From contig CM097885.1 of NCBI GenBank assembly GCA_044892525.1, positions 16,122,001-16,186,000 on the forward strand: 64,000 nucleotides of DNA, in the 5' to 3' direction. Under the pieces are notes generated by a model that saw only the letters and a program-made list of their open reading frames with translations, was not told the origin of the DNA and did no database searches. Origin of the DNA: Schmidtea polychroa. Its lineage: Eukaryota. The translations under genes and the position numbers were made by a program. Shown here one piece after another: positions 8,355-60,388 of the stretch; position 1 is the stretch's first letter; each line of letters begins with the position of its first letter.

Positions 8355-8443
8355 TTCTGGAGATTGACCATGAATTTACTGGCTTGATTATCTGGATGAA
8401 TAAGCGGGCAACTATTGCTTGGTAAAATAGTATAAAAATTCAC
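8355..8443 (-). pseudogene. Truncated N-terminus of Maverick minor capsid (penton)-like protein
   Basis: FYTILPSNSCPLIHPDNQASKFMVNL resembles the FY.tLPSN...fP.N..s.F...L start of Polinton pentons; overlaps the integrase stop (GTGA); sequence becomes unrelated after NLQK. Confidence 0.65.
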
Positions 8444-9495: not shown

Positions 9496-9556
9496 TACAA
9501 CAAGAAGATTTAATATTAAATTTAATGTCTGGTAATGAAGGATTAGCACCCATTGT

Positions 9557-10051
9557 TTATGATCGACTTCCTATTATTCCACCTAATAATGATATTGCTA
9601 AAGGTATCAATGCACCGATAAATCCCCCTTGTTGTTTATATATAATTTTTCTCATTTGTTGACGATTTTTATTATTTACTAATGATAGCAAAGGTTTCCT
9701 ATGTTTACTCAATAATTGCTTTTTAGATTTACTGATTTTAATCTTGCCTTTGACTACTTTAAGTATAATATCGAGTAAATCATCGACAACATAATTTGGA
9801 AATGATTGCAAAATACTGTTTCTTTTCATACTTGGTGCCTTTAACAATGTATTGAAAAACGGGAAACTCCGATGATTTTTAACAACTTTTACTTTCTTAG
9901 TGGTTTTACTTTTAGTTTTAGGTTTAGGATTTTTCGAAATGAGATTCATTGCAGGAAAATTTTCTGTAATAAGTTCTTTAGATGGAGTATAACTAGTTGT
10001 TGGTGGAACTTTTGGTTGTTTTTTACTCGATATCCTTGTTTTTGAAAACAT
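9557..10051 (-). CDS. Basic core-like virion protein ending in QQGG/F plus amphipathic helix
   Basis: Lys-rich 164 aa; C-terminal KQQGGFIGALIPLAISLLGGII resembles adenain-type cleavage site plus helix of Polinton/adenovirus small core proteins; lies between ATPase and integrase. Confidence 0.7.
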   Translation of the reverse strand: MFSKTRISSKKQPKVPPTTSYTPSKELITENFPAMNLISKNPKPKTKSKTTKKVKVVKNHRSFPFFNTLLKAPSMKRNSILQSFPNYVVDDLLDIILKVVKGKIKISKSKKQLLSKHRKPLLSLVNNKNRQQMRKIIYKQQGGFIGALIPLAISLLGGIIGSRS

Positions 10052-14109: not shown

Positions 14110-16516
14110 ATAAAGTGACCTTGATATTATTTCTTTTTCTCCAACACGAAATTTATTCTGTTTATTACTTGAAGGAAATTAGTTATCTGTACATTGATAT
14201 TTATAATTTCATTACGCAATGTCACATTCTCGTGTCTCATTGCTTGCATCTCATATCTTTTTTTACGTCCATTCTCATATAAGGTCAAACAACTATGGTA
14301 TGCAGAAATTCGTATGAGGCTTTGTTTCCCGGGTGGTAGATGTTGTAATATTTCTGGAGGTATTGATCGCGCAGGTACTATAATCCTTTTGTTGTTGTCG
14401 TTTGTAGTGTCGTACCATATGCCGCCTATTTATTCCAATTGGAGTGAATTCAACCTATGAATTTCGATTATTGTTTCTTTTTGTTTAGTTTTTAAATTTT
14501 CTAACTCTATGATGGATGACATGTTAAATGCATTGATGTCGGTTTTTATTCTTGATAATGCGTCTGCACTTATGTTAGCTGAACCTGCTATATATTTTAT
14601 TTTACAATTAGTTTGTGAGATATAGTTTAGTTGTCTTATTTGTCTCGGTGAAGGGTTTTTCATATTCATTGCGTTTATTAAGGATTTATGATCGATATGC
14701 ACTTCAAATTTCTTTCCTTCCAATAGGTTTTGGAAATGTCTGATTGTATCAAGTAGCGCTAATAACTCCCTGTCAAAAGTGGAGTATCTCATTTGGTGAG
14801 TTTTAAGTTTCTTTGAGAAGAAAGCTATTGGTCTTTTTTTCGTTATTTTCTTCTTGGAATATCGCTGCGCCCATTGCTAATCCCGAACAATCTGTGTTGA
14901 CTATGTATGGTAATTCTTGGTTGGGATAGCTTAGGATGCTTGCGTTTTTCAGTGTTTTATTTTGCCTGTTCAAAAGCTGTTATTATTTTTTCATTCCAAT
15001 TTATTTTGATGTTTCTCTTTATTTTGTTCAGTTCGTTGAGAGAGGGCTAGCATTTCGCTACATTTTGGTATGTATTTGTGATAGAAGTTGATCATGCCAA
15101 GGAAACGTTTTAGCTCTTTTGTTGTTTTGGGTAACGGATAATTTTTGATCGCTTTGATTTTGTCGTCTAATGATTTTGTGCTGTTTTCGTTTAACAGGTG
15201 TCCCAAATATTTTATTTATGTGTTCAAAAATGCACATTTTTAATGTCAATTTTTAGTTCATGTTTGTTTAATATTTTGAACACGTTTTTAATGTTTTTTA
15301 TATATTCTTTTTTGTTTGCTGATGCTATCAAGATGTCGTCTAGGTATGCGACTGTGTTTTGTTGATTTCAAAATATTTGGTCATGATGCGTTGGAAAGTG
15401 GCTGCTGCGTTTTTTATTCCAAAAGGCATTTTGTTATATTCGAAAAGTCCTATGGGTGTGATGATTGCGGTTTTCTTTGACAAGAATTTGTTGACAGGCT
15501 TTTTCTAAGTCTATTTTGCTGAAAATTTTGGGTTTGTTAAATCTGTTAATGATGTCGTTTATTATTGGAATTGGGTATTTGTCGGCTGTTGTGATATTGT
15601 TTAGTGCTCTGTAGTCTCCACAGGCTCGCCATTCGCCGTTTTCCTTTTCTTTAAGCATGAGAGCTGATGACCAGTTTGAGTTTGAATGTTTGACGATTTG
15701 GTTTTCAAGTAGTTCGTCGAATATTTTCTTAGTTATTTCGAGTTTATTTTTGTCTAATTATCTGACTTTTGCATGGACTGGGTTTCTGTTGCTAATTATT
15801 ATGTGTTCGATTATGCACTTTGTGTTATTGTTTGCCTCTAGTTTATTAGTTATATTTGGTACATTTTGTATCAGTTTTGCGATTTCATTAGGTATATGCC
15901 AGTTTGTTTCTGTTTTAATTGTTTTTGTTTCACCGTGTTGGGCTGTTATTACTCCGATGTCACAATTGATTTGTTTCTTGGATTGTTTAATTTTGTTGTA
16001 TATGTTGTTAGAATTGTTTGGTAAGACCCTTCCATTCTTGCAGTAGACTAGTAGATCGACGTTTGAGAGAAAATCTGCTCCTAAAATGGCTTGTTTGACT
16101 TCAGCGATAGTGAATTGCCAATTGTATTGTGTTGTTGATGGTGATTTTAATGTTTTGTTTCCCGAACGTTTTGATTGGGCTGCCGTTTGCTGCACACAAA
16201 TTCGCGGTTACTGTTTTTGTATTTTTAGTTAAGTAATTCGGTATTAATGAAATTATTGAACCTGAATCAACAAGAAAATTAAGGCCATTGCTATGCACCG
16301 TAAATGTTTAGCTGTCACCAATTGTCGGTGCTATCACTGGTGACTTTATATATATATTTCCTGACTCTTCTTTGTCGAACGAACAAGGTTTTATTCCCAA
16401 ATTTATTGTGTTAGTAACAATAGTTTTGGTTTGTTCGTTTATTAGGGTTGTTCCATCTTTAATTTCTGTCAAAGCTGTTGCGGCTGCCTAATCTTGTATT
16501 TTGTTGTGGATAGTTT

Positions 16517-17379
16517 TGTTGGGTTTTTAATGCAAGTCGGTACTACGGTCTGACTCCTTTGTGTTCTTTTCCAAATAAATAAATAAACAGATAACCCAAC
16601 ACAAAATCTTTATTGACACTGATGCAGTTACACTTTTACACTTGTATTAGTTTACTCACACTTGATACAATCAGGTTTTGTCTGCACTTTTCAATTGCCA
16701 ACAAATCTCACGCAAGGGTAGATCTTCCAACGGGAGATATCCCTTTCTGGTACGTTCGATTTTTTTTAAATGGTTTACTTTCGACTATCTTTGATATTTC
16801 CTTTTTCACTCTCGTCAACTTCTGTTTTCTTTTCTTCGACCAACTGGCATTTTGTTTTCTTGTCAGTTGCTTTTATACTCGCTTGTTAATTGACTTTATT
16901 TTTGCCAATTATTTTTGGTTTTATTTCCCCCGGGCTTCCTCTTGGAGGTCTTATTTAATTGAAGGGAATTTGCTCATTTCCTTTGACGGCGCTTTTTATC
17001 CGGCTAAATTAATTGCCTTCCCGAAATTGGATTTCTCAATTCGCTCGGGTTTTCCATTGTATCGGGTTTCTCATTAGCTCGGGTTCTCCATTAGCTCGGG
17101 TTTCCCATTAGCTCGGGTTTTCCATTAGTTAATTAATTTTTAATTAATTTTTGTTTTTTGTAATTTATTCCTTTTAGGGACCCCCCATTGATTTTATTTT
17201 ATTATAGCTGAACTCGTCTCATTATTTAGCATCCGCCCATACCAGTTTCCCCCAGAAAATATTCATTTTTAAAATTTTGATTTTTTAATTAATATTTTGT
17301 ACTTTAAATTTTTATTTTGAATTTGGTGTTTTTATCAATTTTCACCTCATTTTTGTGCCTCTCTTGTTGAACCCCAACA
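16517..17379 (-). repeat. 3' LTR of 16.6-kb element
   Basis: Direct repeat of 32255-33117; adjacent polypurine tract AAAAGGGGGGAGATA on minus at ~17380-17394. Confidence 0.97.
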
Positions 17380-19765: not shown

Positions 19766-21235
19766 TTAATCCATCTTTATTTCTAATCGTTTCGTTTCAT
19801 GCCGATATCGTATTATTGTTTCTTCGCGTTCATATACTACACCATTGACAGTAACAGTGTCTCCGACATCAATGTTCGAAGTTGTTTTTCTCTTTTTGGA
19901 TTTTCTACATTCTGGCATTGGACCATATTCAAGTGTTGGATGTATCCTTATCATCGAAATGCTTTCCATTAATGCGACACCTTCTTCCGCAATTTCTAAG
20001 AATGATTCATTGGCCCACTTCAATTGAATCAATGGATTTTCACTATCCATCGTCACATTCTCCTCGAATGTTAAATCAATTTCTTCAGATTCCATTACAT
20101 CTTCAATTGGAATTTGCGTTAGTTTTTCTGGTATTGCAGTTGATGTTGATTCAATTTCCCGAAGCTTCTTATATTCGTCCCACGAATATCGCTTTGACGG
20201 TTGATTTTTGGGCATCGGTATGTCATCAATCCATTGACTTTCTACTTTCTGGTATACCTTGCGTATACTTTTCACGTCCTCGAGAGCCGAATGAATACTC
20301 ATCTGAGTCTGTTCTCCACATATTTCTTTCACCACTGTTTGTAGTTTGAACCATTCTCCCCTTATGGTTACTCCCATGTTCTGAAGTATTGGTGCTGCTG
20401 CTAGATCTCGAATGCCGTACAATTGTTCAATCCATATCCCCAAGTATTGTAATTCTGCATGTAAATCATGGCCGATCAATATCTTGCCCACTGTCAAGCG
20501 TTGAATTTCTTTTATTGCCACGTATTGATCACATTGGTTCCTGCTAGCCACTTCTGTAATTCCATGGATCCTTGAATTAAAATGTCGGATTTTTCCTCTT
20601 GGAGTGAGGTATACATCTTTTACTACTTTTCCATAATAATTCATAATTGCTATTGCTAAAGGGATCATTTTCCCTTGGTCTGATGTGCCATATTCAGCAT
20701 CAATGAATAATATTCTATTGCGGATTTCTTCTAGATCCATTTCTTTTCTGAGAAACGACATTTTCTTTTTCAACATTTCCTTTGAAATTTTCAATAACAT
20801 TGGGTCTTCTCCTTCAATTAGATGCATCTGTGGTACCTCATCCGCTTCATTCTCAGTTCTGATTTCCACCACCAACGTTGTCTCCTCATTCGCTGCTCGC
20901 AGTGTTCTCCACATGAAGTCCTTCTGCAGCTTCCATGATGTGAATTTTCGGAGTTGCCACCATATTGTATTATCGTTCTTCAGCACTTCCACTGTACCTC
21001 TGATCACGTGTATGTGATATTCTTCCTTCTGAGACAACTCAATTTCATCTGTCAATTTCAATTCTGAATTTCTCCTTATTGTAAACATTCGTATCTTCAT
21101 TCTTCTGTCATCTATCCGCAAATAATTTGGAATTTGTAAATTTTCATTGATTTCGTATAATTGTTGGCTGGCATGATTTTTCTGCATCTTGAAGTAACTG
21201 TCGTAGGTGGATCTTGCCCATTGTACTTGTTCCAT
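19766..21235 (-). CDS. ORF3: DEDDh 3'-5' exonuclease (REX4/ISG20-like) with uncharacterised N- and C-terminal extensions
   Basis: ExoI LFIDAEYG, RIHGIT, ExoII ILIGHDLHAEL, ExoIII HSALEDV; intact 489 aa. Confidence 0.88.
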   Translation of the reverse strand: MEQVQWARSTYDSYFKMQKNHASQQLYEINENLQIPNYLRIDDRRMKIRMFTIRRNSELKLTDEIELSQKEEYHIHVIRGTVEVLKNDNTIWWQLRKFTSWKLQKDFMWRTLRAANEETTLVVEIRTENEADEVPQMHLIEGEDPMLLKISKEMLKKKMSFLRKEMDLEEIRNRILFIDAEYGTSDQGKMIPLAIAIMNYYGKVVKDVYLTPRGKIRHFNSRIHGITEVASRNQCDQYVAIKEIQRLTVGKILIGHDLHAELQYLGIWIEQLYGIRDLAAAPILQNMGVTIRGEWFKLQTVVKEICGEQTQMSIHSALEDVKSIRKVYQKVESQWIDDIPMPKNQPSKRYSWDEYKKLREIESTSTAIPEKLTQIPIEDVMESEEIDLTFEENVTMDSENPLIQLKWANESFLEIAEEGVALMESISMIRIHPTLEYGPMPECRKSKKRKTTSNIDVGDTVTVNGVVYEREETIIRYRHETKRLEIKMD

Positions 21236-21665: not shown

Positions 21666-24600
21666 CTACACAAATGTTTCTTCATAAACGATCCAAGGTC
21701 TCGCAATCTCGGATCGATTCGTAGAAGGTTTGGGTATTGTTCGAAATTCAATTAGCACAATGATAATGAGAATAATGAGAGAGATTGTTATAATGAGAGT
21801 AGTTATTAATAATGTGACACACACAATTTCACTGTCAGTTTTTAATGACGATATGGTTTCGTTATTAGTCATTGACTCATTGATGCTAGAGAAGATGATT
21901 ACGTTGGCAGAGCTAGGGGTTCGGTTGGACTGATTTGATTTGTTTCGATTTCCATACTGCGAGTTAATAGATGGAATTTGCACAATTTTATTTTCCACTA
22001 ATGTTAATTGCCATAAATTTGAAAATAGAGAACGTCTATAGTATTTTATTTTAATGAACACAAATTTTGACGTTGATATTGGTGAACGTTGACGAAAAGT
22101 TAATATTTGAGATTTATTTTTTTCATTTAATATCGATTGAATTTTTCCATAATAATATAAAATAGCTTTTTGATTGGGCTCCGCTTGTCGGGTAACGTTC
22201 ACTAATTGATTGAAAATATGAAAAGTAACCCGATTTGTTTCATTAACTAATCGTATCATATGTTGACTAGAGTGTATTCTGATCCATTGACTATCAATTT
22301 CAGTTCCGTTTTCATATAAAGATTTTTCATAATAATGAATCAGAATATTATAGTTATGATGTAATTTTAAATTTGCATACTTTATAAAGGGTTTTCTGCT
22401 ATTCAATGTATCTATCGCATAATTTTGAAAAACTGCTTTTACTTGTTGGGATTCCTGGGGTTCCCAAAATATGTCAATTCCATTTACCAGTGGTTCAATT
22501 GATACTCGATTATGTAATCTCTTTGTCCAAATATTAATACGTATAAGATTTTGTATTTTTGTATTATTACTTTTCGAATCCAATTGCGTAATTAACCAAG
22601 GGTATTCATAATTCATTGTTAATTGTCTAGCCACATAAATATTTTTGGTGCTGTTCAATTTTATTGGGGGTTCGAAATAGTTTATTAGATTATCTATCTC
22701 TATTTCTTCTGCTCCTCCAGCATAATAAACCCAAACTATTTGAGTACATGTTGAATAAATATGAACTTTGTCTAATAATACAACTGTATTAGTTGCATAT
22801 AATGGGAATACTCTCACTGCATTTACTGACATTATATTGATAATCATTACTGTTGTAATCAATAAAACTTTATTGATGTAACTCAATGGAGCAGGGTTTT
22901 TTGTAAACTTTTGTTTAATTACTGGGTTCCCTGCATCTTTATTTGGTTTTGATCTCAATGGATAACGTGATTCATCTTCTATTATCTTCTTGCATCTGTT
23001 TACATGAACGATGATTGTCCCAGCCTTTTTATTGTTTTGTGGACGCAATTTTAAGTTAGTCTCTGTCGTATCACACACTAGATATGGTCCTTTAAACGGT
23101 CGTTGCAATTTCGTTGACAAGCCTTTTGTTGGTTCTGGTTTGTTTATATACACGAGATCTCCAATTTTAATGTCATGCGCCCGTGCGCGTTTATCATAGC
23201 ATTCTTTATACGCTTCTTGATGATGCCTTATGTTAAGTCCAGCTTGGATCCATACTGACTGTAGTCTTTCATGCATAGCTATTTTATAATCTGACACATC
23301 CATATATTGGGAAATAGGTGACTGAAATTCTAGATCGACTGGCATATTGTTTCGTCGTAGATACATGAGATAAAAGGGTGTTTCTCCAGTGCTTTCATTT
23401 ACTGCATTCCGGTATGCAAATAGGCATGGTTTAATGAATAAATCCCAATCCTTTTGTTTCCTATTTACATAGGATGATATCATATTAATTAGTGTCCCAT
23501 TAAATCTTTCAACTAGACCATCTGTTTGTGGATGATATGGTGAGGTACTAAGTTTTAATATACCAAATAAATCTGTAATTGATTTAAATAATTCACTCTG
23601 AAAATTTGTTCCTTGATCTGTAAGTAATTTCTTTGGTGCTCCGTATCGAAAAATAATATTCTCCACAAATATTTTCGCAACTGTTTCTGCTTTCTGATTT
23701 GGCATTGCATAAGCTTCTGGCCATTTAGTAAGATAATCGCAAAAAACGATAATGTATTTGTTGCCATTTGTTGTTTCCGGCAATGGACCAACGATGTCCA
23801 TTGCTGTCATTTCCATTGGCGCCTTTGGCACTGGCATAGGCTTAAGCGGAACTTTTATTTTCCGTCCCGTATTTCGTCTTGTTAGGCATATCTCACACGT
23901 ATGACACCATTGTCTGACATCTTGTTCCATCGTTTTCCAATAATATTTCTGTTTCAATCTTGATAATGTTTTTCGCGCTGATAAATGCCCTCCTAATGCT
24001 CCATCGTGATACAACAACAGCAATGCTTTTCGATGTTTTGTCGGAACAATAATTAACAAATTTTCATTTTGTACACATTTTAACAAACCATCATGAATAA
24101 TGTATTTATGGTTCTCTTCGGCAATATGTTTCCAGTCACTCTCCTTTTTGATTGAGACAGCATGTTGACGTAACTGATTTAATTCCTCGTCATTTTCCTG
24201 ATCATCTTGTAATTTTTCGATATTATTTACCGTTTTAATTGCCAAGAATATTGTATTTTCGCAATTTTTCTCATCTTGATCAACATTATTTTCTACGGGT
24301 ATTCTCGACATAGCATCCGCATTTGCATTTGATTTTCCTGTACGATACTTTATCTCGAAATCATATTCTTGTAACGCAATTGACCACCTAATTAATTTAC
24401 TGGCCGAATCTCTGTGCTTCATTAGCCATTGTAACGGATTGTGATCTGTAAAGACGACAAATTTTCTGCCCACTAGATATTGTCGAAAAGTAGTTATCCC
24501 ATATACCAATGCTAACGTTTTCTTTTCGATTGTTGAATAATTCTTTTCATGAGGTTTCAATGATCTGCTGGCATAAGCAATTACATGATCTTTTTCCCCT

Positions 24601-26486
24601 TCTACTTGCTGTCCTAATACCGCGCCTAATGCGAAATTACTGGCATCTGTCATTAATATAAACGGTTTTTTAAAGTTCGGACATCTTAATATCGGCTGTT
24701 TTATTAAGCTTTCTTTGAGTTTATCAAACGCTTCTTGCTGAGCTGTTGTCCATTTAAATTTTGCTTGCTTTTTCAATAACATGTTCAAAGGTTGTGCTAC
24801 GTGTGAGAAACTTTTAATAAACTTTCTGTAATAACTGGCTAATCCCAGAAATTGTCGAACCTGATCTACATCCTTGGGAATAGGATATTTCCCAATTTTT
24901 TCTACATTTTCTGGATTTGGTTGCAAACCTCGACGCGAAATGATATGACCCACATAAACGACTTCAGATTTCCCCCATTCACATTTGGAGGGTTTTATTT
25001 TTAAGTTTGCTTCTAACAATCGCTTGAATACTGTTTCCACATCCTGCAAATGTTCCTGAAAACTATTCGAAAATATTATAATATCGTCAATATACACTAA
25101 TGCATGTGGTATATCGCGCAAAACAAAATTCATACCTCTCTGAAATGTAGCAGGTGCTCCTGTTAATCCGAATGGTAACACGTTAAACTCATATAGACCC
25201 TTCCCATCTGAAAATGCAGTTTTCCTTCTATCTTCCTCTTTGACTTTAAATTGATTGTATCCTTTATTAAGATCTATTACCGTAAAATATTGCACCTCCC
25301 CCATCTGATCGAACATTTCCTGTGGAACAGGAATAGGATATGTATCTTTTCTCGTTACTTGGTTCAATTTTCGATAGTCGACACAAAATCTTAAATCACC
25401 GTCCTTCTTTTTAACTACTACTATTGATGATGAGAATGGTGAGGAACTATCTTTTATTATATTGAATTCTTTCATTGCTTTGATTTGCCGATCACTTTCT
25501 TCCTGATGTATGTATGGTATTCTGTACGGCCGTAATTTTATTGGGGTTTCGTTGAGTAATGGTATTTCATGCTCAATCACCTGAGTGAGTCCCAGATCAT
25601 ACTCATGTTTTGCGAATACATTTCTATATTTCTTTAATAATGCACCGAATTCTTGTTTTTGCAAATCCGTCAAATCTTTGCTTGTGATCTGAGGTTCTTT
25701 ATAAATTTTTATATTTCTCGGTAACTTCTGAGCTTCCTCTGATTTGATTTTTGTTAATTTTCCCAATTTGGTTTTGGGTTTTATCTCAACGGATCTTGCA
25801 CTATAATTCGCTATTCTAACTGGTACTGACTTATTTTGGACTTTCACTACTTCATCACACATAGGCACATCGTATTTTTCAACCAGCTTTTGATTTGGCT
25901 CAAATATGTACTCCTCATCTGAGACCCTCATAACATCTGCATAGTAGATTACTTCGCTTTTTGGTGGTACTTCCAATGTTTGGTTTAGAAATACCTCTCC
26001 TACTTCAGGCACTACTTCACCCATTTGTCCTTTTATTAGTTTTCCAGTTCTCAGATCAAGAGAGATTCCATGTAGTTGCTCCATGACATCCATGCCAATT
26101 AGACATTTTACAGGACTTTTTCTCATCACTGATACCCAATGAATTATTTCTTGCTCTCCAATTATCAGTTTAACTTCTAATTTTCCAACAATATTTAGTG
26201 CATTATGTGACATTGATTTAATAATGTGATTCGTTGGTTTTATTTTGGCTTTCTCCTGATACGTCAAGAAACTTTCCGCTACTATAGTATGACTTGAGCC
26301 TGAGTCTAATAAAGCTTCCACTTTTCTCTTGTTAAACTGTATGTTTATTCGAGGTTGTTTTCCTCCTACTACTGTTGTCATTAGTGCATAGCTGCATGGT
26401 AGACCAAGCATATTCTTTCTTTCAATTTCAGCACTCGTTGGTTCAATCTTCTCTAATTCGATTGTGATATTATCTACAGGTTTCAT
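21666..26486 (-). CDS. pol: ORF2: Pol (aspartic protease, RT, RNase H, integrase) with C-terminal signal-like segment, ectodomain and TM
   Basis: LLDSGSS; LRFCVDYRKLN, LPFGL, YIDD; TDAS, TDHNPL; HDGALGGH..CEIC, DIVGPL, DQGTNF, GLVERFN; GPY; then two hydrophobic segments. Confidence 0.97.
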   Translation of the reverse strand: MKPVDNITIELEKIEPTSAEIERKNMLGLPCSYALMTTVVGGKQPRINIQFNKRKVEALLDSGSSHTIVAESFLTYQEKAKIKPTNHIIKSMSHNALNIVGKLEVKLIIGEQEIIHWVSVMRKSPVKCLIGMDVMEQLHGISLDLRTGKLIKGQMGEVVPEVGEVFLNQTLEVPPKSEVIYYADVMRVSDEEYIFEPNQKLVEKYDVPMCDEVVKVQNKSVPVRIANYSARSVEIKPKTKLGKLTKIKSEEAQKLPRNIKIYKEPQITSKDLTDLQKQEFGALLKKYRNVFAKHEYDLGLTQVIEHEIPLLNETPIKLRPYRIPYIHQEESDRQIKAMKEFNIIKDSSSPFSSSIVVVKKKDGDLRFCVDYRKLNQVTRKDTYPIPVPQEMFDQMGEVQYFTVIDLNKGYNQFKVKEEDRRKTAFSDGKGLYEFNVLPFGLTGAPATFQRGMNFVLRDIPHALVYIDDIIIFSNSFQEHLQDVETVFKRLLEANLKIKPSKCEWGKSEVVYVGHIISRRGLQPNPENVEKIGKYPIPKDVDQVRQFLGLASYYRKFIKSFSHVAQPLNMLLKKQAKFKWTTAQQEAFDKLKESLIKQPILRCPNFKKPFILMTDASNFALGAVLGQQVEGEKDHVIAYASRSLKPHEKNYSTIEKKTLALVYGITTFRQYLVGRKFVVFTDHNPLQWLMKHRDSASKLIRWSIALQEYDFEIKYRTGKSNANADAMSRIPVENNVDQDEKNCENTIFLAIKTVNNIEKLQDDQENDEELNQLRQHAVSIKKESDWKHIAEENHKYIIHDGLLKCVQNENLLIIVPTKHRKALLLLYHDGALGGHLSARKTLSRLKQKYYWKTMEQDVRQWCHTCEICLTRRNTGRKIKVPLKPMPVPKAPMEMTAMDIVGPLPETTNGNKYIIVFCDYLTKWPEAYAMPNQKAETVAKIFVENIIFRYGAPKKLLTDQGTNFQSELFKSITDLFGILKLSTSPYHPQTDGLVERFNGTLINMISSYVNRKQKDWDLFIKPCLFAYRNAVNESTGETPFYLMYLRRNNMPVDLEFQSPISQYMDVSDYKIAMHERLQSVWIQAGLNIRHHQEAYKECYDKRARAHDIKIGDLVYINKPEPTKGLSTKLQRPFKGPYLVCDTTETNLKLRPQNNKKAGTIIVHVNRCKKIIEDESRYPLRSKPNKDAGNPVIKQKFTKNPAPLSYINKVLLITTVMIINIMSVNAVRVFPLYATNTVVLLDKVHIYSTCTQIVWVYYAGGAEEIEIDNLINYFEPPIKLNSTKNIYVARQLTMNYEYPWLITQLDSKSNNTKIQNLIRINIWTKRLHNRVSIEPLVNGIDIFWEPQESQQVKAVFQNYAIDTLNSRKPFIKYANLKLHHNYNILIHYYEKSLYENGTEIDSQWIRIHSSQHMIRLVNETNRVTFHIFNQLVNVTRQAEPNQKAILYYYGKIQSILNEKNKSQILTFRQRSPISTSKFVFIKIKYYRRSLFSNLWQLTLVENKIVQIPSINSQYGNRNKSNQSNRTPSSANVIIFSSINESMTNNETISSLKTDSEIVCVTLLITTLIITISLIILIIIVLIEFRTIPKPSTNRSEIARPWIVYEETFV

Positions 26487-26543
26487 TTCTTTTAATTGTT
26501 CATTTGGATATATTGGTGCTGTTGGTCTAAATGTCGGGGTATA

Positions 26544-29500
26544 TCATCTACTAAGAGTATCAATCCCGCTTAATTTTGGCATTGGTTCAAGCAAGAACCT
26601 GGACTCTGGCTCTACTTTACTCTTTATTACACTTTTTCGAAAGCATTTATACTCCGATTCCCCGTTGTTGTTATCATCATTATGATCGTCGTTTTTATCT
26701 TCCGACTGACACGTCGATTCCTCACTTTTTCGGCCATTTCTTAATTGTGCCCTTACTCTTGCCATTTCTTTAAATTGATGATCTGTAATAAAGAATCTAG
26801 CCAACAATGGAATACAACCAATAACTAATTTCCATGACCATCCCGATATTGCGTATATTCGATGTACTGACAACATTTGCGACACTACCACCTTTGCCGT
26901 TATCATAATCACGTAAATTCCAATTAAACCTGCACATGCTTGTCCCAAAAACATGAACTTGCCCCAAATCTTTTCCATCGTTTTATATGTAGCTCGTTTG
27001 AAATGATCAGGTGTTAGCAAATTTTCGTAATTTACTGTTCCTTCTCCATTCGGTAATACTGTGTCAATCATTTCTGAAATTATCCGTTCCTTTTTGGATG
27101 GAAACAACAAATTCCTTTGAGCTTCTTCAATATCTTCGCTTGCATACAAGCCCATTTGTGCCATTTTGTTTAGTGATGTGAAATTTATCAGGTATTCTAA
27201 ATTTGTTAATTCTAGTTTGTCTGGAGTCTTGACCCCACGATAATCTGGTAAGGCTATCCATGAGTCTGTAGCTAATCGGTATAAAGGGGCTAATAATCGA
27301 TTGCATTGCAAAAGTTTTGGTTTAGTTTGTTCATCAAGCAAGATTCTAGTTATCGGTTCCATAAATCGTACCTTTCCCCCAAAGCTTACTGGTAATTCAT
27401 TCGTACATTTTTCGTATTTGGCAATTTTCACTGTGACTTCTTTGCATTTGTAACTGTATAATGCTTCTCCAAATATTCTCGCAAACACTCCATTTTCTGA
27501 TATTAGCATAGGTGCTACTAAATTTGGATTCGTAATTGCCATCGCCATCCGATTTCGGAGAATCTCTTTATTCAACTTACAATCGTTCAGAATCATTTCT
27601 CTATATACATTTTCCATGATGTTTTGACTAAAATGAAACAAATAATCAATTTTATTATTAAAATAATGAGTAAGTTTAATGTCATCTCTGTGAATTTTAA
27701 TTTTTGCTTCTTCCACAACATTTCTAGACACGTAAACACCTTTATAATTTGTTACATATACCATTCGACCACATTTATTTGTGATTTCCTTTTTTATAAA
27801 TCGCATTCCATCTGCTGGTAACGTAGACATTATAACTGTTCCCATTTGCTTTGTCCATACTGGGGTTGATTTAATGGTATTATTTGGTCTATAATTCATA
27901 TTGAAATTATCTGGTTTATCTCTAAACTGTTCTCCTACTAGCTCTTTAAAGTTCATAGTTTTTAAGTGCGCTAAATTACACTTATTTGTTTCTACATTAT
28001 AAACAAGAATCGATTCCCCTGTTTGACAATGTGTTTGTTTCATATTACAGAATGGATGAGTTTGTAATTTTCCCGTATCATCATCGAAAGCTCCTTCGAA
28101 CTCTCTCAACTCCGTGAGATATTCTTCTAGCACCACTGTTTGCTGAATAATTTTACCGTTCATTTTATATGGTTCACCTTCACAGTCGCCATTTGCTTTC
28201 ATAGCTCCCTTTACAATTATTGTTTCCCGTATTCTATGGTTCAATTTTGCCTTTAAACGAATTTCTGGACTTATTTTTAATTCTCCTGTTTGAAATGCTG
28301 CTAGACAGTTTTCTGGAAGCACCTCGACTGGCCTAGGTATCGCATGCATTTTTATGAGTGACGTATGGCTCCATTTACCACAATAAAATACAAATGTTGT
28401 ATGTTTGACAATACACTCTCTCACTTGAGTTCTTCGCAGATCAGACTCTTGATACACATAATATTTTACGTCATTTTCTATTTTTAAACTGCTCGGATAC
28501 GCACCTGGGCATTCCGACATATCTACTACCGAATAGACTTTTCCCATTTCAGTTTGGGAACAATCGTACGCAACTAAAGATGATGTCTGTGTAATTATTG
28601 CACAAAACGTAATCACCATAAACATCGCCCATGGAAATATCATAGTTTTTCTTAGTTCTGGCTTAACTCTTTCATTTACTCGTCTTTGGGGTGGGCTCAT
28701 TTCTTGCTTCTCATTTTTCTTGTCTGTTAGAGATGAACACAGTGTTTTCCAACCACCTTTTTCGTTTACCCAGCTCATTAAATATTCGTTTACTAGCCGG
28801 GCAGCGATGTCTATCAAATTTTCTAACTTGTCTGACCTTGCGAACGTATGCGTTCCAATTTCTAAAACAACATAAGTTAAAGCTATTATTATAACTTCCT
28901 TATTAATTTCATTTTTTGCCAAATTTTCAATTACTGATCTCTCGCAGAATGTATTCTCTTCGCCAAATTTCTGCATCACTTCAGGGAGCCTATTCTTCAT
29001 CTCTTTAACTATTTCTTTCAGTTCATCCTCTACCTCTATTTCTATGTCGAACATTGGATATACTGCTTTAACGAGATGTTTCAACATTTTCTTAGTTTCG
29101 TCGACGTCCTGTTCTAACCTCACTAAATATTTCTTTATTTCATATAAAGTTCTAACTTTCTTATTTTTGATTTCACCATTTATTTCGCCTTCAGGTACAA
29201 GTGGCTCTCCTTGTACGTCTGGTTCTGTGGACTGATCTTTGTTATCAGGATCTTTTTGCTCATTATCACTAACGATTTGATCAATTTCTTTATTTCCCTT
29301 AACTTTTTCATCTTGTTCCTCTGTGTCAGGCTTGTTAGACTCAATATTTACTTCTAAACTCACCCCTTTTACTACGACTATATGGTTCACTAAATATTCC
29401 ACTCGTCCATCTCGGATCAAATATCCGTTTTCATCCAGCTCTTGGGGTACACACCCACAATCGTATAGGTATTCATCATCGTCAAGTTCTTCACCTTTGT

Positions 29501-31856
29501 ACATTACTATAATAATTCCATCTTTCCCCAGCGTTTCAGCCGCTCTCTTCCGCAATTTTCGGACCTTTGCACACCAATGCTCATCTACATATTCCGTTTT
29601 GCCATATCCCTCATAATCTAATGCTATCAAAAATGGCTTTAGCTCTACTCTTGCTTTTCTGAGCTCCTTGCCCAATCTTTGCAATAAACTTCTTAATAAC
29701 TTGGCATATCTGGTTTTCACATGTAAATATGGTCGTATTGCATTCACTATTTTTAGTTTATCGTTTTCCTCCATTTCTAATTTCTCAATAATCTGTAACT
29801 TCTCATTGATTTCATCTTCATCTCCAATATATAACGCATCATTTAATTCCTCTAATATCTCCCTTGAATTCCTTTTGTCTATTATTTTACTACTCATTAT
29901 TTCATCACTAGTAATTACATTTTCCATTTTTAATTCATTTATACTCCCTGGTATAAATCCACAATCTACCAAAAATTCGTCATTTTCTAACAATCTCTCA
30001 TTAAATCTCAACTCTATCATGCATCCTTCCTTTTTTTCTTTTAATTTATTCTTTAAATCATTTACACAATCATTTGCCTCACAACGACAACATAGTACAC
30101 TTTTATCAATCTCGTTTACTACTTCCACCAAGATGGAATCTAACCCTGTTTTCTCTCTCAAAGCTTTTCCAAATATTTTCATTAATTCTTTAATTTCTTC
30201 TTTATACCTTGGATTCATATTATAGTAGTTAACGCACAAGCTAATTACACTTTTTATCTTTCTCATACTCAAAGATATTTGACTTAATTCTCTCAACGAT
30301 TTGATCACTTTAGCCGACTCTATTTCATTATTTCCAATTAGTTTTTCGATTCTGGTCATTATCATTGTTGCTTTTTCACTTTCTAAATCATCTTTTATAA
30401 CTCTCCTTTTCGACTCTTTTTCATTCAATTCCTCTTGCGACTCATACATCATGTGATTATTGTAGTCCTCTTCTGATTCAAACTTTGACATCAATCGATC
30501 CAAACGTCGACCCATTTCTCTCACTTCGCTTTCAATTCTTTCATTAAAATTATCTGGCTGAATAAAAGCTACATTATCCATCTGCGGTTTGTCACTCTGA
30601 AACCTAATCGATTTCTTTAATATGGGCCTTTGGAATTTATCCACATTTCTTGGACATGATCTAGCCATGTGTCCATAACTTCTGCATGAATGACATTGAA
30701 TTTGTCCTTGTAGATTTACTTTATCTCTCTGCGGTGATGGTGAAGTTGATGTTGATCTTGACCTGGCAAAACAATTTCGTGACACATGCCCTTTTCTTCC
30801 GCAATTAAAGCATTGTAAGTTATCATTAGTTCTCGGCTCATTAATGTTCGCTTTAGTGAAACTTTTCGCACCATTTCCTTTTAACCAATCAGGCCACATT
30901 TGCCTTGGACTCCGTTGTACATTATTTTTGGACCAGCATTGATTGCTGTCATGTCCCATTCTTTGGCAATTATCACACTGAATCGGAATTGGGCTTCTCT
31001 GTACTCTATTTTTAAACCAGCATTGGTTAACATGGTGTCCAATCCTTTGGCAATGACTACATTGGATGGGACCTTCCTTTCCATCTGTTTGAATATCTGT
31101 TGACTTGTTCGACTCAAATTTGGATCTAAATTTTGGTGATGGACTACTTGTTTGTTGAAAACGATTGTTTCTAATTGGGGTTACTGATCTTTCGCTTGCG
31201 CCTGAGATGACTGCAAACGATTCTGATTTTGACTGTGTGCTTTTTAAATTTAGCTCAATTTTCATTGCCTTTTTGATCAATTCATCAAAGTCATTAAAAT
31301 CAACATAGCATAGAGCCTTTTTAATTTCTTTCTTTACTCCTGACAAGAATTGATCCTGCAATAATTCTTTTACCTGCTTTGCCATCTCGGCCTGTTCTGG
31401 TTTCACTTCGAACGCTTTCTCTGCAAGAGTTGATAAATGATAAGCAAACTCACTTACCGATTCCTCTGGCTTTTGTACGCGGTTATAGAATTTCTGTCGC
31501 ATTATCCGTTTGATATCCCCTCCGATTAATTTCGTAGCTAAAGCGTCTTTCAACTTGGTCCAGTCATTTGCTACTATTCTTTTATCAATTTGTTGCCACG
31601 CTTCTCTGGCTGCTCCTTTTAGGTATAGCGGTAATCTTTGCACCATTATCGATTGGCTCCATCCATAGGCCGTCGCATACATATAGTAATCTGCCATGAA
31701 ATCGACAAATTCCAGCGGATCTCCACCGTACTGATCCACAGGTAGTTTTTGGCAACTCGCATAATCATTGCCTTCCCTGGCATTCCCCACAGAAACTGTG
31801 GACACCGGTGTTTCATCATTATTATTTGTATTATTAACTTGTCTTTGGGTACTCAT
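26544..31856 (-). CDS. gag-env: ORF1: Gag (4 CCHC knuckles) - 2x ubiquitin-like - Bcl-2-like - envelope glycoprotein polyprotein
   Basis: First ATG 31856 (MSTQ); retrotrans-gag RVQKPEESVSEF; four CX2CX4HX4C; WVNEKGGW; signal segment + LVAYDC, CGKWSH, GEALYSYKC, CTNELPV; C-terminal hydrophobic helices. Confidence 0.92.
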   Translation of the reverse strand: MSTQRQVNNTNNNDETPVSTVSVGNAREGNDYASCQKLPVDQYGGDPLEFVDFMADYYMYATAYGWSQSIMVQRLPLYLKGAAREAWQQIDKRIVANDWTKLKDALATKLIGGDIKRIMRQKFYNRVQKPEESVSEFAYHLSTLAEKAFEVKPEQAEMAKQVKELLQDQFLSGVKKEIKKALCYVDFNDFDELIKKAMKIELNLKSTQSKSESFAVISGASERSVTPIRNNRFQQTSSPSPKFRSKFESNKSTDIQTDGKEGPIQCSHCQRIGHHVNQCWFKNRVQRSPIPIQCDNCQRMGHDSNQCWSKNNVQRSPRQMWPDWLKGNGAKSFTKANINEPRTNDNLQCFNCGRKGHVSRNCFARSRSTSTSPSPQRDKVNLQGQIQCHSCRSYGHMARSCPRNVDKFQRPILKKSIRFQSDKPQMDNVAFIQPDNFNERIESEVREMGRRLDRLMSKFESEEDYNNHMMYESQEELNEKESKRRVIKDDLESEKATMIMTRIEKLIGNNEIESAKVIKSLRELSQISLSMRKIKSVISLCVNYYNMNPRYKEEIKELMKIFGKALREKTGLDSILVEVVNEIDKSVLCCRCEANDCVNDLKNKLKEKKEGCMIELRFNERLLENDEFLVDCGFIPGSINELKMENVITSDEIMSSKIIDKRNSREILEELNDALYIGDEDEINEKLQIIEKLEMEENDKLKIVNAIRPYLHVKTRYAKLLRSLLQRLGKELRKARVELKPFLIALDYEGYGKTEYVDEHWCAKVRKLRKRAAETLGKDGIIIVMYKGEELDDDEYLYDCGCVPQELDENGYLIRDGRVEYLVNHIVVVKGVSLEVNIESNKPDTEEQDEKVKGNKEIDQIVSDNEQKDPDNKDQSTEPDVQGEPLVPEGEINGEIKNKKVRTLYEIKKYLVRLEQDVDETKKMLKHLVKAVYPMFDIEIEVEDELKEIVKEMKNRLPEVMQKFGEENTFCERSVIENLAKNEINKEVIIIALTYVVLEIGTHTFARSDKLENLIDIAARLVNEYLMSWVNEKGGWKTLCSSLTDKKNEKQEMSPPQRRVNERVKPELRKTMIFPWAMFMVITFCAIITQTSSLVAYDCSQTEMGKVYSVVDMSECPGAYPSSLKIENDVKYYVYQESDLRRTQVRECIVKHTTFVFYCGKWSHTSLIKMHAIPRPVEVLPENCLAAFQTGELKISPEIRLKAKLNHRIRETIIVKGAMKANGDCEGEPYKMNGKIIQQTVVLEEYLTELREFEGAFDDDTGKLQTHPFCNMKQTHCQTGESILVYNVETNKCNLAHLKTMNFKELVGEQFRDKPDNFNMNYRPNNTIKSTPVWTKQMGTVIMSTLPADGMRFIKKEITNKCGRMVYVTNYKGVYVSRNVVEEAKIKIHRDDIKLTHYFNNKIDYLFHFSQNIMENVYREMILNDCKLNKEILRNRMAMAITNPNLVAPMLISENGVFARIFGEALYSYKCKEVTVKIAKYEKCTNELPVSFGGKVRFMEPITRILLDEQTKPKLLQCNRLLAPLYRLATDSWIALPDYRGVKTPDKLELTNLEYLINFTSLNKMAQMGLYASEDIEEAQRNLLFPSKKERIISEMIDTVLPNGEGTVNYENLLTPDHFKRATYKTMEKIWGKFMFLGQACAGLIGIYVIMITAKVVVSQMLSVHRIYAISGWSWKLVIGCIPLLARFFITDHQFKEMARVRAQLRNGRKSEESTCQSEDKNDDHNDDNNNGESEYKCFRKSVIKSKVEPESRFLLEPMPKLSGIDTLSR

Positions 31857-32254: not shown

Positions 32255-33117
32255 TGTTGGGTTTTTAATGCAAGTCGGTACTACGGTCTGACTCCTTTGT
32301 GTTCTTTTCCAAATAAATAAATAAACAAATAACCCAACACAAAATCTTTATTGACACTGATGCAGTTACACTTTTACACTTGTATTAGTTTACTCACACT
32401 TGATACAATCAGGTTTTGTCTGCACTTTTCAATTGCCAACAAATCTCACGCAAGGGTAGATCTTCCAACGGGAGATATCCCTTTCTGGTACGTTCGATTT
32501 TTTTTAAATGGTTTACTTTCGACTAACTTTGATATTTCCTTTTTCACTCTCGTCAACTTCTGTTTTCTTTTCTTCGACCAACTGGCATTTTGTTTTCTTG
32601 TCAGTTGCTTTTATACTCGCTTGTTAATTGACTTTATTTTTGCCAATTATTTTTGGTTTTATTTCCCCCGGGCTTCCTCTTGGAGGTCTTATTTAATTGA
32701 AGGGAATTTGCTCATTTCCTTTGACGGCGCTTTTTATCCGGCTAAATTAATTGCCTTCCCGAAATTGGATTTCTCAATTCGCTCGGGTTTTCCATTGTAT
32801 CGGGTTTCTCATTAGCTCGGGTTCTCCATTAGCTCGGGTTTCCCATTAGCTCGGGTTTTCCATTAGTTAATTAATTTTTAATTAATTTTTGTTTTTTGTA
32901 ATTTATTCCTTTTAGGGACCCCCCATTGATTTTATTTTATTATAGCTGAACTCGTCTCATTATTTAGCATCCGCCCATACCAGTTTCCCCCAGAAAATAT
33001 TCATTTTTAAAATTTTGATTTTTTAATTAATATTTTGTACTTTAAATTTTTATTTTGAATTTGGTGTTTTTATCAATTTTCACCTCATTTTTGTGCCTCT
33101 CTTGTTGAACCCCAACA
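32255..33117 (-). repeat. 5' LTR of 16.6-kb element
   Basis: Direct repeat of 16517-17379; only two substitutions noticed by eye. Confidence 0.97.
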
Positions 33118-35084
33118 GTTTTGTCTGTTTTCATAATTTTGCGTTCTCCTGGATTCACTTCTTTGTAATTCGGTAATGTCTTTTCTTAGACTTTTGTTTT
33201 CGATAATTATTTCGTCGAATTTTGTTACCAAAGTAGAGAGGAGTTTGTTCGTTTCTGTAGTTTCTGAGCTATTGTGTACCGAGATGTTTTGGTCGTTGTA
33301 TTTGAAATAATTTTTGTTTTGGTATGTTCTACATATTGTCTGTTACATTTCGTCATTGATTTGTCTGCTATGTTTGCCAGAGTTTCGAGGTCTGTACAGT
33401 TGCTGACAGCTAGAATCCGGCGTATTTCAGGTGGCATTGCGCGCATGAATAGGTCTTTCATAAACTCTTTTGAGCCAGTGTTATTTTAGGTTGTAAGTAT
33501 TCGAGTTTTGTTTTTAAGTTTCGCAGGAATTCAGACGGTTTGTCGTTACGCAATGGTATACCTTTCAAACAGGACTCGAGTAGTTCTCGTCTGTTTATTT
33601 TGTTCCTATTTATTACGGTATAAGTTTTCGAAAGGGTTGTAATCCTTTGATATTTCCTCTATTCTATCAGTATCTCGTTGAGGATGTTGCTTGGAAGGGT
33701 GACAATTATGTGAGAGCAAACAGTTTTTGATGATTTAATGCCTGATAGACCTAATGTTAATTTGGCGAATTCTAGCCACTTTTGTGGTGTCCCGTTTTCG
33801 TCTGTAAAGAAATTTGGAATGTTTGGCTTAGGGTTAAGTATTGTGTTTACCGCGGATGAATTGTCGGGGTTGTTGTAATAATTGCTGTTTTCTTGAGTTG
33901 TGTGTGTTTTCTGTATGGGCATTAGGGTTGTAATGATAGTTTATGTTTTCTGGTGTATGAGTGTTTTCATAAATGTTGGGTATCTGTGTAGTATTTATCG
34001 GGTTTGTTTGATTGGTTGCAATTGATTGTTTTGTTGTTGTATTAAAAAATTATAATTGTTTATCTGAAGAGTATGGCCTACTGTGTTCGGCAAAAGTGTC
34101 ACTAGTCTTTATAGTTCTATAATAACTATACTAAAAGGTTTCGTGATTGAAAGAACAAATGCCGAATTCGTGTGTGTTATTGTTGTTTTATCTTCTGACA
34201 CCAATTATGTTGTGATATTCCCGTTGGTATGTGTGTATTATTTAAGTATTTGTTTAATGTATGACTGTGTGTTGAAAGGAAATTGTAAGGGTCCATCCGA
34301 GTCACCAATAAATAAACTGTCTCGGGACAGCTGAGGTGAATTTATGTAAGTTACCGAAAATTATGATATACAAATGAGTAAAACGGATGTTAATATAAAA
34401 TTACAACGAAACGCTGTAACTACAAATTTTATTATATATATAAAATTAATTAATTAAGTGACCTTGATATTATTTCTTTTTCTCCGACACGAAATTTATT
34501 CTGTTTATTACTCTAGGGAAATTAATTATCCGTTGAAGATTAAAATTGGTTTTTCTACTGAAGGTTCTCAGATATTAAATGTATTACTCATAATGAATAA
34601 TTGCTGATTAAATATTTAAATTATTACTTGAGGGAAATTAGTTTTCACTTGAAGATTAGAATCGCTTTTTCTACTGAAGGTTCTCAGATATCATATGCAT
34701 TCCTCGTACTGTATAATGGCTGATTGAATATTTAAAATATTACTTGAGGAAAATTAGTTGAAGATTAGACTCGCTTTTTCTGCTTAAGGTTCTCATATAT
34801 AAAATGTATTACTCGTGATGAATAATTGTAGATTGAATATTTAAAATATTGGCATAACCACAGAATTGAAATTGTCAAAAATAGTATAGTTATTTAAAAA
34901 TTTTTAATTTCTGTTATTGAATTTTTTCTTCTTTTATCAATTTTCTATTGCGATAATTTACCTTGGTAAACTATCGCTATATAGTTTTTAAAAAAAAATA
35001 AAAATAAATTCTTTTCCACGTGCAACGTGCGAGATTTTAATTTACATATAACCAACGAATAAAATAAAGTAAAATTTTATAATA

Positions 35085-41554: not shown

Positions 41555-42394
41555 TTAAATTTGTAAGAATTTTTCAATTCTGCACCTGAGCAGCAATTTA
41601 TCACTTTTGGCTGCTAATTGATAGATTGAGCTGGCATCATGATCAAGATAATAATAATAATAAATGCTAATTGGATTATTTCTATCATCTGAAGGTTTCC
41701 TCCATCCCGCTGCATCCGGCAAATCTGAATATTTTATTGACTTGCTCATATAAATGTTGCCATTTGCTGGATCGATCACATCGATTGTCACGGATTGATT
41801 GAACGGCCAATCCAATTGCTCATCATTTGCCCCACGCATCACACAGAAACCAACATTAACCCAATCACCCCCAATCACCACCCACAAGCACATTTTGTAA
41901 CCGATTGGCCCTGAATAAAATGGCTTGCTGTAAATATTTTCATTTCTGTTTTGTGAAAATTTATCGATTTGCCATTCAAAAAATCCGTAATTTATATATT
42001 TTTCATTTGCTACTTTTGTTTCAATCTGCCGAATTTCATTGGCGCATTTCGCCATTTCAAGCTGCAGCTGAATCTCAAATTCAAATATTTCAATAAATCA
42101 ATAAATCACCTTTTCATTCTCCTGTTGCTGCCGCTGCTGGCATTTCTCTTTCATCTCATCAATTTGCTGTTGACATTTTGTTTCATTCTGCCGAATTTCA
42201 TTGGCGCATTTCGCCATTTCAAGCTCCAACTGAATCTCAAATTCAAATATTTCAATAAATCAATAAATCACCTTTTCATTCCCCTGTTGCAGCTGCTGCT
42301 GGCATTTCTCTTTCATCTCATCAATTTGCTGTCTGACCTGCTTTGCATCAATAACAAATCAATATGCATGCATTTTTATACAGATCTAGTAATG

Positions 42395-42460
<66 letters not shown>

Positions 42461-43117
42461 CAATAATCAAACTTGATTGATAAATCCAATATATGTCTCC
42501 ATCTCCTTTCTCAATGAGCGATTCTCATTCTTCAATACCACCATTTCCTCATTCAATTCTTCTATTTCATCTCTGTTCTCCGCCTCTTTCCTTTCAATAT
42601 TGCCCAGTTTCACCTATATTCACAAATATCAATTAAATTAATTACAAATACACTAAAATTTTACATTGAAATTGTTCTCAATGAGATGGCCTTTCATTTT
42701 GTCGTCATCCACCTCATTCATTTCGCATCCAATTCTATTGAATGGACATTTGATTTGTTGCTTGTTGCATGTTCTCATGTGGCTCTCCATCACCTCTAAT
42801 TCATTTTTAAATTGACAATTTTGCATTGGGCATCTCACTATCACTTCTGAAATCCTTAAATTGGCTGCGTGATCTTCAGAAACATCCTTAATAAAATTTA
42901 TCATTTTCTTTTCACAATGTTTTGCTGCTCCGGGACAGAATTTATCTTTTCCATCCAAATAATGTTCAATGCAATCAGAACAAAAGCGACAACCGCAAGG
43001 AGCATGGCAAGCTTTTATCATTAAACACTTGCAAATCCTGCATATCAATTCACTGCTGATTTCATTATCAAATTCAAATTTATTCCTCTTCATCATTTCC
43101 CATACGCTTGCAAACAT
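41555..43117 (-). CDS. TRAF-family gene (RING, zinc finger, coiled coil, MATH), multi-exon
   Basis: CRICKCLM...PCGCRFCSDCI; CPMQNC...HMRTC...CPFNRIGC; YSKPFYSGPIGYKMCL, LDWPF; short GT-AG introns. Confidence 0.9.
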
Positions 43118-45581
43118 TTTATCTAAAATTAACAAAATTATCAAAATATTTCATCATTTTACAACAATCATAAATCATACTTATTATATTAATTATTTCC
43201 TCTGAAGTTTACAATTTCAATATTTATAATTTGTATTTTGATGTAGATAAACAAATATTTTATAAATATTGTTTTTTAGCTTTTAGCACAAATCAAAATA
43301 TTATTAATGCTAATTTTTTTCTCATTTATGTTAAATATTACAAAATTAATTAAATTACAATTTGATAACAAAATGTAAAATTTTAAAATTTTAACAGCAA
43401 ATGCAAATTAAAAATATATCAAAATATAAAAATAAATAATTTTCATAAAATATTAAAATATTGATCAAATGAACTCGTCATGGTTACAAATATTTGTCTG
43501 ACATTTTCTGATGTGTACAAGGTTCTTGTGAGCCCCATATTGACATTTTATTGTGACAAAGCTGCAATGATAAAATGTCAAATGCAGAAAGCAATACTGA
43601 TAAATTGGATTAGATTTAACACAATAAAAATTAAATTGTAACGAATTTTTGTATAATTTTATAAAATCTGTGATCGATGCAAAGCCTAATTGACACGTAA
43701 TTTTAATTGATTTTATCCAATCGTATTGCAGTTCACTGGCTGGTGGATGTGTATTGATGCATGAATACATGTACATAAATGTGGCACAGAATTCGGTCAC
43801 AGCAGATTCAGCAACAAATAAAACATTGGTTTTTTTATTTTTTTAAATTAATCCAATTAATGGACACCGTGGAGCAATTGCTAGGACCATTCTGATGTCA
43901 TTCCACAGTAGCCGCGGTCATCTTTCATTGTTCTTTGTTGTGTCATCGAACGCATTGATAAATTGTGACGTGACTTGTTAGGGGTTTCTATCAAGAGTTC
44001 TTCCTACAATAGCGAATGTGTAAAAGTTGATGTAATAGATCACAGGGTGTCAGTAGCATTCATCTATATCCATGCCCAGTGTGATAAATGCTTTGGAAAC
44101 ACTTATTTTATTTAGTCTTCCATATTTGTTTATTGAATGAAGGATTTTATGCCATTGCAGAATAAATTATTTGACACTAACTGACATGGTAAATGGAGGG
44201 AATGGGGGCCACAGGTTATATCAACAATGATACAAATATAATTGCATATCACTTATTCCGTAGCCTACAGACGTCAATATTAGGAAAGGAAGAATCATTC
44301 GCATAGAATATTTAGCTAAGTATTACCTATGGTGTTACCTTGTGTATGAATATGAATTAATGACGAGTTGAGGGAATTTGATTTTAACCTTTCTAGATCC
44401 TCAATTTGAAGGTATGGAAACTTGTAAACAGACAAGATCCTACACTGACATATCAGATGGCATGCATGAAAGGAGCTTTTACCCCTCTGGGGTCTTCGAG
44501 AGTCTCCGGTACCAGTCGGGTTCCGTGTAGCACACGGGTTCACCACTGTCGGTGTATAGGAACTAGAAATTTCCGCTTAGGAAATAGCTGTAGAAAACGA
44601 GATCGTATGATACCACAGACTAATGTAAATTTCCTTGGTTCGAGAGATATTAGAAACTAAACTATCAGACCTGATACGAATAAATCCAAATACTCTACGT
44701 TGGCACATAATATGATTCCAAAATAATTGATATGAAGTGGAATGTTTATTATTTCTAAGAGTAGTAACACGGGAAACTGTTAGGCGATAGTTTTCGAGGA
44801 TATGCATATATGGCAGATACCCCATTCTCCGAAACCATTGAAAAATGCGATATTTTTAACTGAAGCTTGATGGAGGTTGAATCATGTTTGGAAATTTCAA
44901 CTTATGACAGACCCAACATTTTCAAAGGCAAAGCTTGAAATTATCGACAAGGCAAGATAAAAAACAAGAATTATGATAAAATTGAATGAAAAAAGGCATA
45001 AATGTTGTTTTTTCTTTAATATGAAGTGAGGATAGACGGCAAAGAATGCTGAGGCATGGACAAATATCCCTAGGTAATTTGCGGACTGATAAATGACTGC
45101 TACTTTTATTGCTCGGTTTCTGTTACCAGCAATCAGAAAACGTGCTATTAAACCAAAAATTGTCCCAAAAGCAAACAATTTCATTACCAAAGAAGTGAAT
45201 TGAATGAATTTAGTCTTTGTAATTCCCAAAAACACAAAAGAACAAGAAATAGCAAAAAACTTGTCTAAAAAAATAAATTAAATGAGACATTAAAGTGAAA
45301 TAAAATTTGCCAAAAGAATCCGATATCCATTCATTCGAGTTATACCTGAATTTAGCCAGCAAAGGTCTGAATCTTGTAGAGCTCCAAGAATAAAAGTTTC
45401 AGTTGTGGAATTAATTTGTTTTTTATCCAATCGAAATGTACTAAATTATCGTAAAAACATTAAGATGAAAAGCATACGGATTATGAACAACAGAAAACCA
45501 TTTATTTACATAATATAATTGGTATGTATCACTAACGAGACATAATTTTTAAATAATAATTATATTAATAATAATAACAAC

Positions 45582-60334: not shown

Positions 60335-60388
<54 letters not shown>

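Follow-up and report, generated by a model that had tools for sequence, protein, structure and literature searches.

In a 64,000-nucleotide stretch of the Schmidtea polychroa genome (assembly GCA_044892525.1, contig CM097885.1, positions 16,122,001 to 16,186,000 of the forward strand; hereafter the window, in whose own numbering positions are given), we found two diverged copies of a unit of about 155 amino acids (aa), composed of a helical lobe followed by a ubiquitin-like domain (UBL), inside the Gag-Env open reading frame (ORF) of a retroelement. This retroelement, a Ty3/gypsy errantivirus of 16.6 kb with Gag-Env-Pol order and an Env of the gB type, lies on the minus strand, as do all its features given below. 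Its ORF1 (Gag-Env, 1770 aa, 26544..31856) holds the repeat region at residues 495-831. Unit 1 (aa ~495-647) is made of a helical lobe at aa 495-570 (30147..30374) and a UBL at aa 574-647 (29916..30137). Unit 2 (aa ~663-831) is made of a helical lobe at aa 663-736 (29649..29870), delimited with a relatives-only profile, and a UBL at aa 740-831 (29364..29639), delimited with the family profile. A preliminary description of the window had proposed this tandem pair with boundaries that agree with ours to within a few codons, and both peptides that it quoted are located in ORF1.

The internal repeat was scored against shuffled sequences. The repeat had a local score of 85, a value that none of 2000 shuffles reached (their scores averaged 36 and peaked at 71). 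When scored separately, the UBL halves gave 66 (0/2000 shuffles) and the helical halves 47 (11/2000). The two units are only 15-16% identical, and no repeat between them was detected at the DNA level (best blastn E 0.37). A profile built from the relatives found through their Env alone recognized two units, and no more, in the window protein, at 58.6 and 57.2 bits, and a profile built from 13 non-window rows gave 73.0 bits for unit 1 and 106.7 bits for unit 2 (aa 665-806). The significant internal repeat on which the preliminary description had staked its proposal is thus borne out both by the shuffle test and by the relatives-only profiles. With single sequences, the window copies score under the Pfam cut-off for a ubiquitin-like domain, phmmer with the region against the PDB sequences returned only two weak unrelated matches, and a word-indexed search with aa 490-1050 among proteins of 973-3098 aa found nothing.

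The AlphaFold2 model of unit 1, obtained with a 15-row alignment, exhibited four helices and a beta-grasp domain with a predicted local distance difference test (pLDDT) of 92 and a predicted template modelling score (pTM) of 0.85, the helical lobe having a pLDDT of 86-97. The predicted beta-beta-alpha-beta-beta-(3-10)-beta fold superposes on ubiquitin, and the model overlays ubiquitin-family domains at 1.1-1.7 Å, with a sequence identity to ubiquitin of ~15-23%. In the same way, the best 60 of 406 matches of the 15-row profile to the PDB were all ubiquitin-family proteins, among them ubiquilin-2 (E 1e-5) and ISG15 (E 2e-6). As a lead only, the ESM Atlas gave nothing other than ubiquitin-family clusters for unit 1 (0.81-0.84) and no usable match for the helical lobe. 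The beta-grasp fold claimed by the preliminary description for both copies is therefore supported in unit 1, where the model is confident and fold searches agree, and is assigned to unit 2 through family membership, the profile reaching only aa 806. The last strand of unit 2 is probably displaced past an insertion of ~17 residues, its position being read by eye. In the single-sequence AlphaFold2 model of both units, the lobe of unit 2 is again helical at low confidence (pLDDT 48 overall, under 50 across the last-strand region of unit 2), and Foldseek with this model found no match at E ≤ 0.001.

The helical lobe and the UBL co-occur in every unit that is not truncated by the end of a protein. 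Column conservation is highest at G563 and R567, where helix 4 ends, and at E627, L629, C632 and G633, around the 3-10 helix of the UBL. Because of the location of these columns and of the pTM of the two-lobe model, we infer that the lobes share an internal interface, and they may form one rigid unit. At the column equivalent to Ile44 of ubiquitin (register set by eye), 8 of the 14 rows have an aliphatic residue (R,M,T,T,W,H,L,E,V,M,I,I,V,M), with an arginine in unit 1 and a methionine in unit 2. The arginine of unit 1 and the limited number of aliphatic rows weaken the suggestion that the module is a canonical decoy for the proteasome or a ubiquitin receptor. A Gly-Gly after the last strand is absent from both window copies, as the preliminary description had read when it took them as probably not conjugated, and it is present in only one of the 13 relative tails listed (one spurious match was dropped; the tails of the relatives P0004, P0014 and P0016, outside these 13, show no Gly-Gly either). 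Conjugation or deubiquitinase cleavage is therefore not a shared role of the family. The single Gly-Gly tail is that of the second UBL of P0002 (aa 904-922), which ends TVHIQARILGG in the ubiquitin register; its close relative P0007 reads ARILKK there.

We also investigated the presence of the unit in related elements. With the Env region as the only query, five proteins were retrieved, and four of them carry the unit at the corresponding place, P0002 twice. Ten more relatives came from an exhaustive search and one from a profile search. The unit is present, whole or partial, in 14 of these 16 relatives, 13 of the 14 being rows of the profile used. P0012 exhibited a weak partial match only, and the profile found no unit in P0006. 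Two units are found in P0002, P0007 and P0008, and P0009 holds the end of an earlier unit. Across the family, the units are 15-30% identical to each other. In a tree of 16 units with long branches, the two window units as a clade were rejected (approximately unbiased test, p-AU 0.002), so the duplication predates this element and a recent tandem duplication inside it is ruled out. A single ancient origin of all first units gave a p-AU of 0.115. In the linker after the last unit, a GRP motif resembling an AT-hook or nuclear localization signal was found in 8 of 10 relatives (P0002, P0003, P0004, P0005, P0007, P0010, P0016 and P0017; the pattern was chosen after inspection), and it is not present in the window protein. 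Two further observations concern these relatives: P0003 has an additional weak UBL-like match at the Pol end (aa 2934-3019, iE 6e-6), and P0002-P0004 have several tandem aspartic-protease-like domains.

The units are located, as the preliminary description had it, between the nucleocapsid and a Bcl-2-like region, with zinc knuckles on one side and, on the other, a divergent Bcl-2-like domain (28728..29144) in which the BH2-type W..E.GGW is kept and NWGR is missing. The Pfam Bcl-2 match (aa 946-1036) has an E of 0.0064 and 17.5 bits for a cut-off of 31.4, and the PDB sequence matches of this region are mostly Bcl-2 family proteins at E of at least 0.25. The region is homologous to segments of P0002, P0005 and P0010 (z 10.8-12.6), and in these three relatives, as in the window, the unit adjoins the Bcl-2-like domain.

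Upstream of the units, Gag (30642..31856) comprises a capsid region, putatively placed by position and by the Ty3_capsid and Retrotrans_gag matches of the relatives, as well as four zinc knuckles of the CCHC type, at aa 266, 294, 349 and 388 (Pfam zf-CCHC E 1e-8). Downstream, a hydropathy scan detected a hydrophobic segment at aa 1071-1089 (28590..28646), found at the equivalent place, ahead of [AG]YDC, in four relatives. This segment is likely the signal anchor of Env, and would also serve as the tail anchor of the upstream cytosolic part. The gB-type (Monjiviricetes) fusion glycoprotein follows in frame with Gag (26667..28577; PF24664, E 1e-87). ORF1 and Pol share one frame, parted by a single in-frame TGA followed by 19 open codons before the Pol ATG (26487..26546). 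This TGA either serves programmed readthrough or is a defect of this particular copy; no stable hairpin, and hence no structure-stimulated readthrough signal, was found 3' of the stop (z +1.7). The 19 open codons contain a PTAP and a YPxxxL motif, and in relatives whose frames run on without a stop, the corresponding tail contains PPxY, YPxxxL or YPDL. Motifs of the PTAP, YPxL/YPxxxL and PPxY types, which we take to be late-domain-like, follow the Env membrane segments in four of four elements, with a chance expectation of 0.1-7% each.

Pol (21666..26486) carries protease, reverse transcriptase, RNase H and integrase, in this order by Pfam, and a C-terminal extension with two hydrophobic segments. 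In this extension (21666-22870), past the integrase, a hydrophobic segment (aa 1206), ~330 residues without a Pfam match and a second hydrophobic segment (aa 1561) follow each other, and they could form a second membrane protein. A third ORF (19766..21235) codes for an ISG20/ISG20L2-like exonuclease (phmmer against PDB sequences, E 9e-11), with a weak DUF7881_N match in its N-terminal part. The long terminal repeats (LTRs), each of 863 bp, are located at 32255..33117 (5', TGT...ACA, followed by the primer-binding site) and 16517..17379 (3', with the polypurine tract), and a GTTT target-site duplication flanks the element. The insertion is recent, since the two LTRs differ at 2 positions and the ends, primer site, polypurine tract and target duplication are present. 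The Pol domain order, these terminal features and the gB-type Env between gag and pol are together those of Gag-Env-Pol Ty3/gypsy errantiviruses of the gB type. Contigs from four of four public runs span all 30 bins of the element. Among the variants listed (40 of 467 differences), three of four inside the units and 8 of 13 across the two ORFs are synonymous. The element itself sits within the gag of a different gypsy element (14260-16516 and 33118-34206), which is 85-88% identical to a copy at ~54500-60500. Pieces of a host TRAF-type gene (RING, zf-TRAF and MATH; 41555-43776, minus strand) lie ~8 kb outside the element, and the remnant of a chromodomain-bearing gypsy integrase lies at 8440-10051 (minus strand).

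Cargo that combines a ubiquitin-like domain with Bcl-2 in the interval from gag to env has been published before, for the giant gypsy-like Burro elements of planarians. Burro ORF1 is described as running from Gag and zinc knuckles through MATH, a motif of the Ubi2/SUMO-like kind and BCL-2 to an in-frame mononegavirus-like Env (Arkhipova & Yushenova 2019, PMC6431247). Burro also carries BIR domains in this region, and an interference with apoptosis and ubiquitination was proposed (PMC6431247), and the Burro1 IAP domain is reported, at second hand, to protect stem cells from apoptosis (PMC13465017). Our element resembles Burro and GYPSM1 as they are described there, with a CCHC Gag and then ubiquitin/SUMO-like, BCL-2 and mononegavirus-like Env regions in frame between gag and pol (PMC6431247). 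Burro differs by its size of >30 kb, its ORF1 of ~4,900-5,100 aa and its MATH, BIR, ankyrin and other domains, with one Ubi2/SUMO-like motif named in that account (PMC6431247), whereas the present element, of 16.6 kb, carries the unit twice, with a helical lobe in both copies, has a stop that separates Env from Pol, and codes for an ISG20-like exonuclease in a further ORF. No Pfam match to MATH, BIR or ankyrin was found in its three ORFs. Neither its size nor its set of domains makes the element a Burro, yet it has the UBL-Bcl-2-Env order, the Burro UBL being compared by description only.

Gag-Env-Pol elements with a gB-type Env have been catalogued in flatworms, nematodes and bryozoans (Chary & Hayashi 2026, PMC13524379). 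Among them, Smed_errantivirus_1 of Schmidtea mediterranea (PMC13524379) has the same Ty3/gypsy Pol, gB-type Env and Gag-Env-Pol order, and over domains I-II of Env it is ~78% identical to the present element, with 54 differences in 251 positions (by eye). It is not the same family member. In the main text of that study, ubiquitin, Bcl-2, TFIIS and exonuclease do not occur, so the cargo is undescribed there (PMC13524379). The module shares the beta-grasp fold and the lack of a terminal Gly-Gly with integral (type II) UBLs such as Rad23, ubiquilin, OASL and the ISG15 lobes, and differs from them by its variable Ile44 face and its own DDEY/FLxxCG motif; a helical lobe ahead of the UBL was not seen in any listed structural match. 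The helix-plus-UBL pairing, its tandem form and its association with an AT-hook were not found in print, in a literature search weak enough to have overlooked even the Burro review.

Our preferred explanation, to which we give a probability of roughly 40%, is that the module acts as a non-conjugated adaptor for host ubiquitin-dependent or cell-death signalling, released by the element protease. The stretch ahead of the Env signal anchor would face the cytosol while tethered to the membrane, the element protease would free the module from the Gag-Env polyprotein, and the freed module could bind host proteins of the ubiquitin system or of cell-death signalling, beside the Bcl-2-like domain. This binding would likely help the host cell to survive during replication of the element. 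The retention of the unit in four of the five Env-found proteins and in 14 of 16 relatives, the adjoining Bcl-2-like domain, the lack of Gly-Gly, the synonymous variants inside the units and the parallel with the Burro cargo all argue for such an adaptor. Several points weigh against it. One shared ubiquitin-receptor partner is doubtful because of the variability of the Ile44-equivalent column, and the AT-hook-like motif after the unit in most relatives suggests a role in the nucleus and not one in cytosolic signalling. Sites for cleavage by the protease were not identified, and the Bcl-2 assignment lies under the curated cut-offs. Moreover, P0003 and P0004 keep the unit and miss the Bcl-2-like domain, so the module does not depend on this neighbour.

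The AT-hook-like motifs suit an unlikely alternative, a self-encoded nuclear tether, in which the helical lobe would be a degenerate form of the N-terminal domain of TFIIS (TND) or of the integrase-binding domain (IBD) of LEDGF, and the released helix, UBL and AT-hook would take the integration complex to chromatin or recruit elongation factors to the provirus. The preliminary description had also noted a loose TFIIS-N likeness. The TND consists of five helices in a right-handed bundle (PMC9987994), and the TND, LW and LEDGF IBD folds all have five helices, whereas the window lobe has four predicted helices and no sequence-level match to them (PMC9987994 for the known folds). TFIIS-N/Med26 was not among the 25 of 32 families listed nor among the 31 PDB matches of a 2-row profile, and the fold scores of the lobe against the TND, not above those against unrelated helical proteins, are not discriminating; the fold searches with the unit 1 model were dominated by the UBL and barely probed the lobe. 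It is more doubtful still that these flatworm errantiviruses encode a LEDGF-like chromatin adaptor in Gag, made of a TFIIS-N-like bundle and a UBL with an AT-hook in most relatives, which, once cut out by the element protease, would steer integration or proviral transcription.

A role in assembly is likewise improbable. The units would then connect the nucleocapsid with the membrane-anchored Env, either as folded spacers or as built-in ubiquitin marks, and would help to recruit the budding machinery. Ubiquitin fused to Gag can stand in for late domains, and the fixed place of the units, with the zinc knuckles on one side and the Env signal anchor on the other (seen in the window, P0002, P0004 and P0005), their spacer-like copy number of one or two and the aliphatic residue at the Ile44 position of unit 2 and seven other rows are consistent with this role. 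Nevertheless, such a surrogate seems unnecessary with the late-domain-like motifs already present in the Env tail region, unit 1 has an arginine at the Ile44 position, and a conserved pair of helical lobe and UBL would not be required if the units were spacers and nothing else.

Pestivirus polyproteins contain ubiquitin inserts, and BVDV entries are found among the fold-search matches of the unit 1 model. A similar module cut by host deubiquitinases (the preliminary description, too, had considered a processing module) would fit the Gly-Gly tail of P0002 unit 2, but is very improbable given the missing Gly-Gly in both window copies and 12 of 13 relative tails, the ARILKK of P0007 and the low identity to ubiquitin. 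The least probable explanation, a captured piece of a host gene decaying as a non-functional passenger in the open frame, would agree with the low identity among the units but hardly with motifs kept across very diverged elements, a fold predicted to be intact and the persistence of both window units since before the split from the relatives, as their rejected clade implies.

The unit represents an accessory module of enveloped Gag-Env-Pol retroelements that is small, well folded and spread across the lineage, and the compact, recently inserted element that carries it here is more accessible to study than Burro with its 30 kb. If true, the nuclear-tether explanation would mean a new route to integration targeting, without the host tether that lentiviruses borrow. 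Identifying the binding partners of the module and of its Bcl-2-like neighbour would put to the test whether cargo that protects the host is a general feature of this group of elements.
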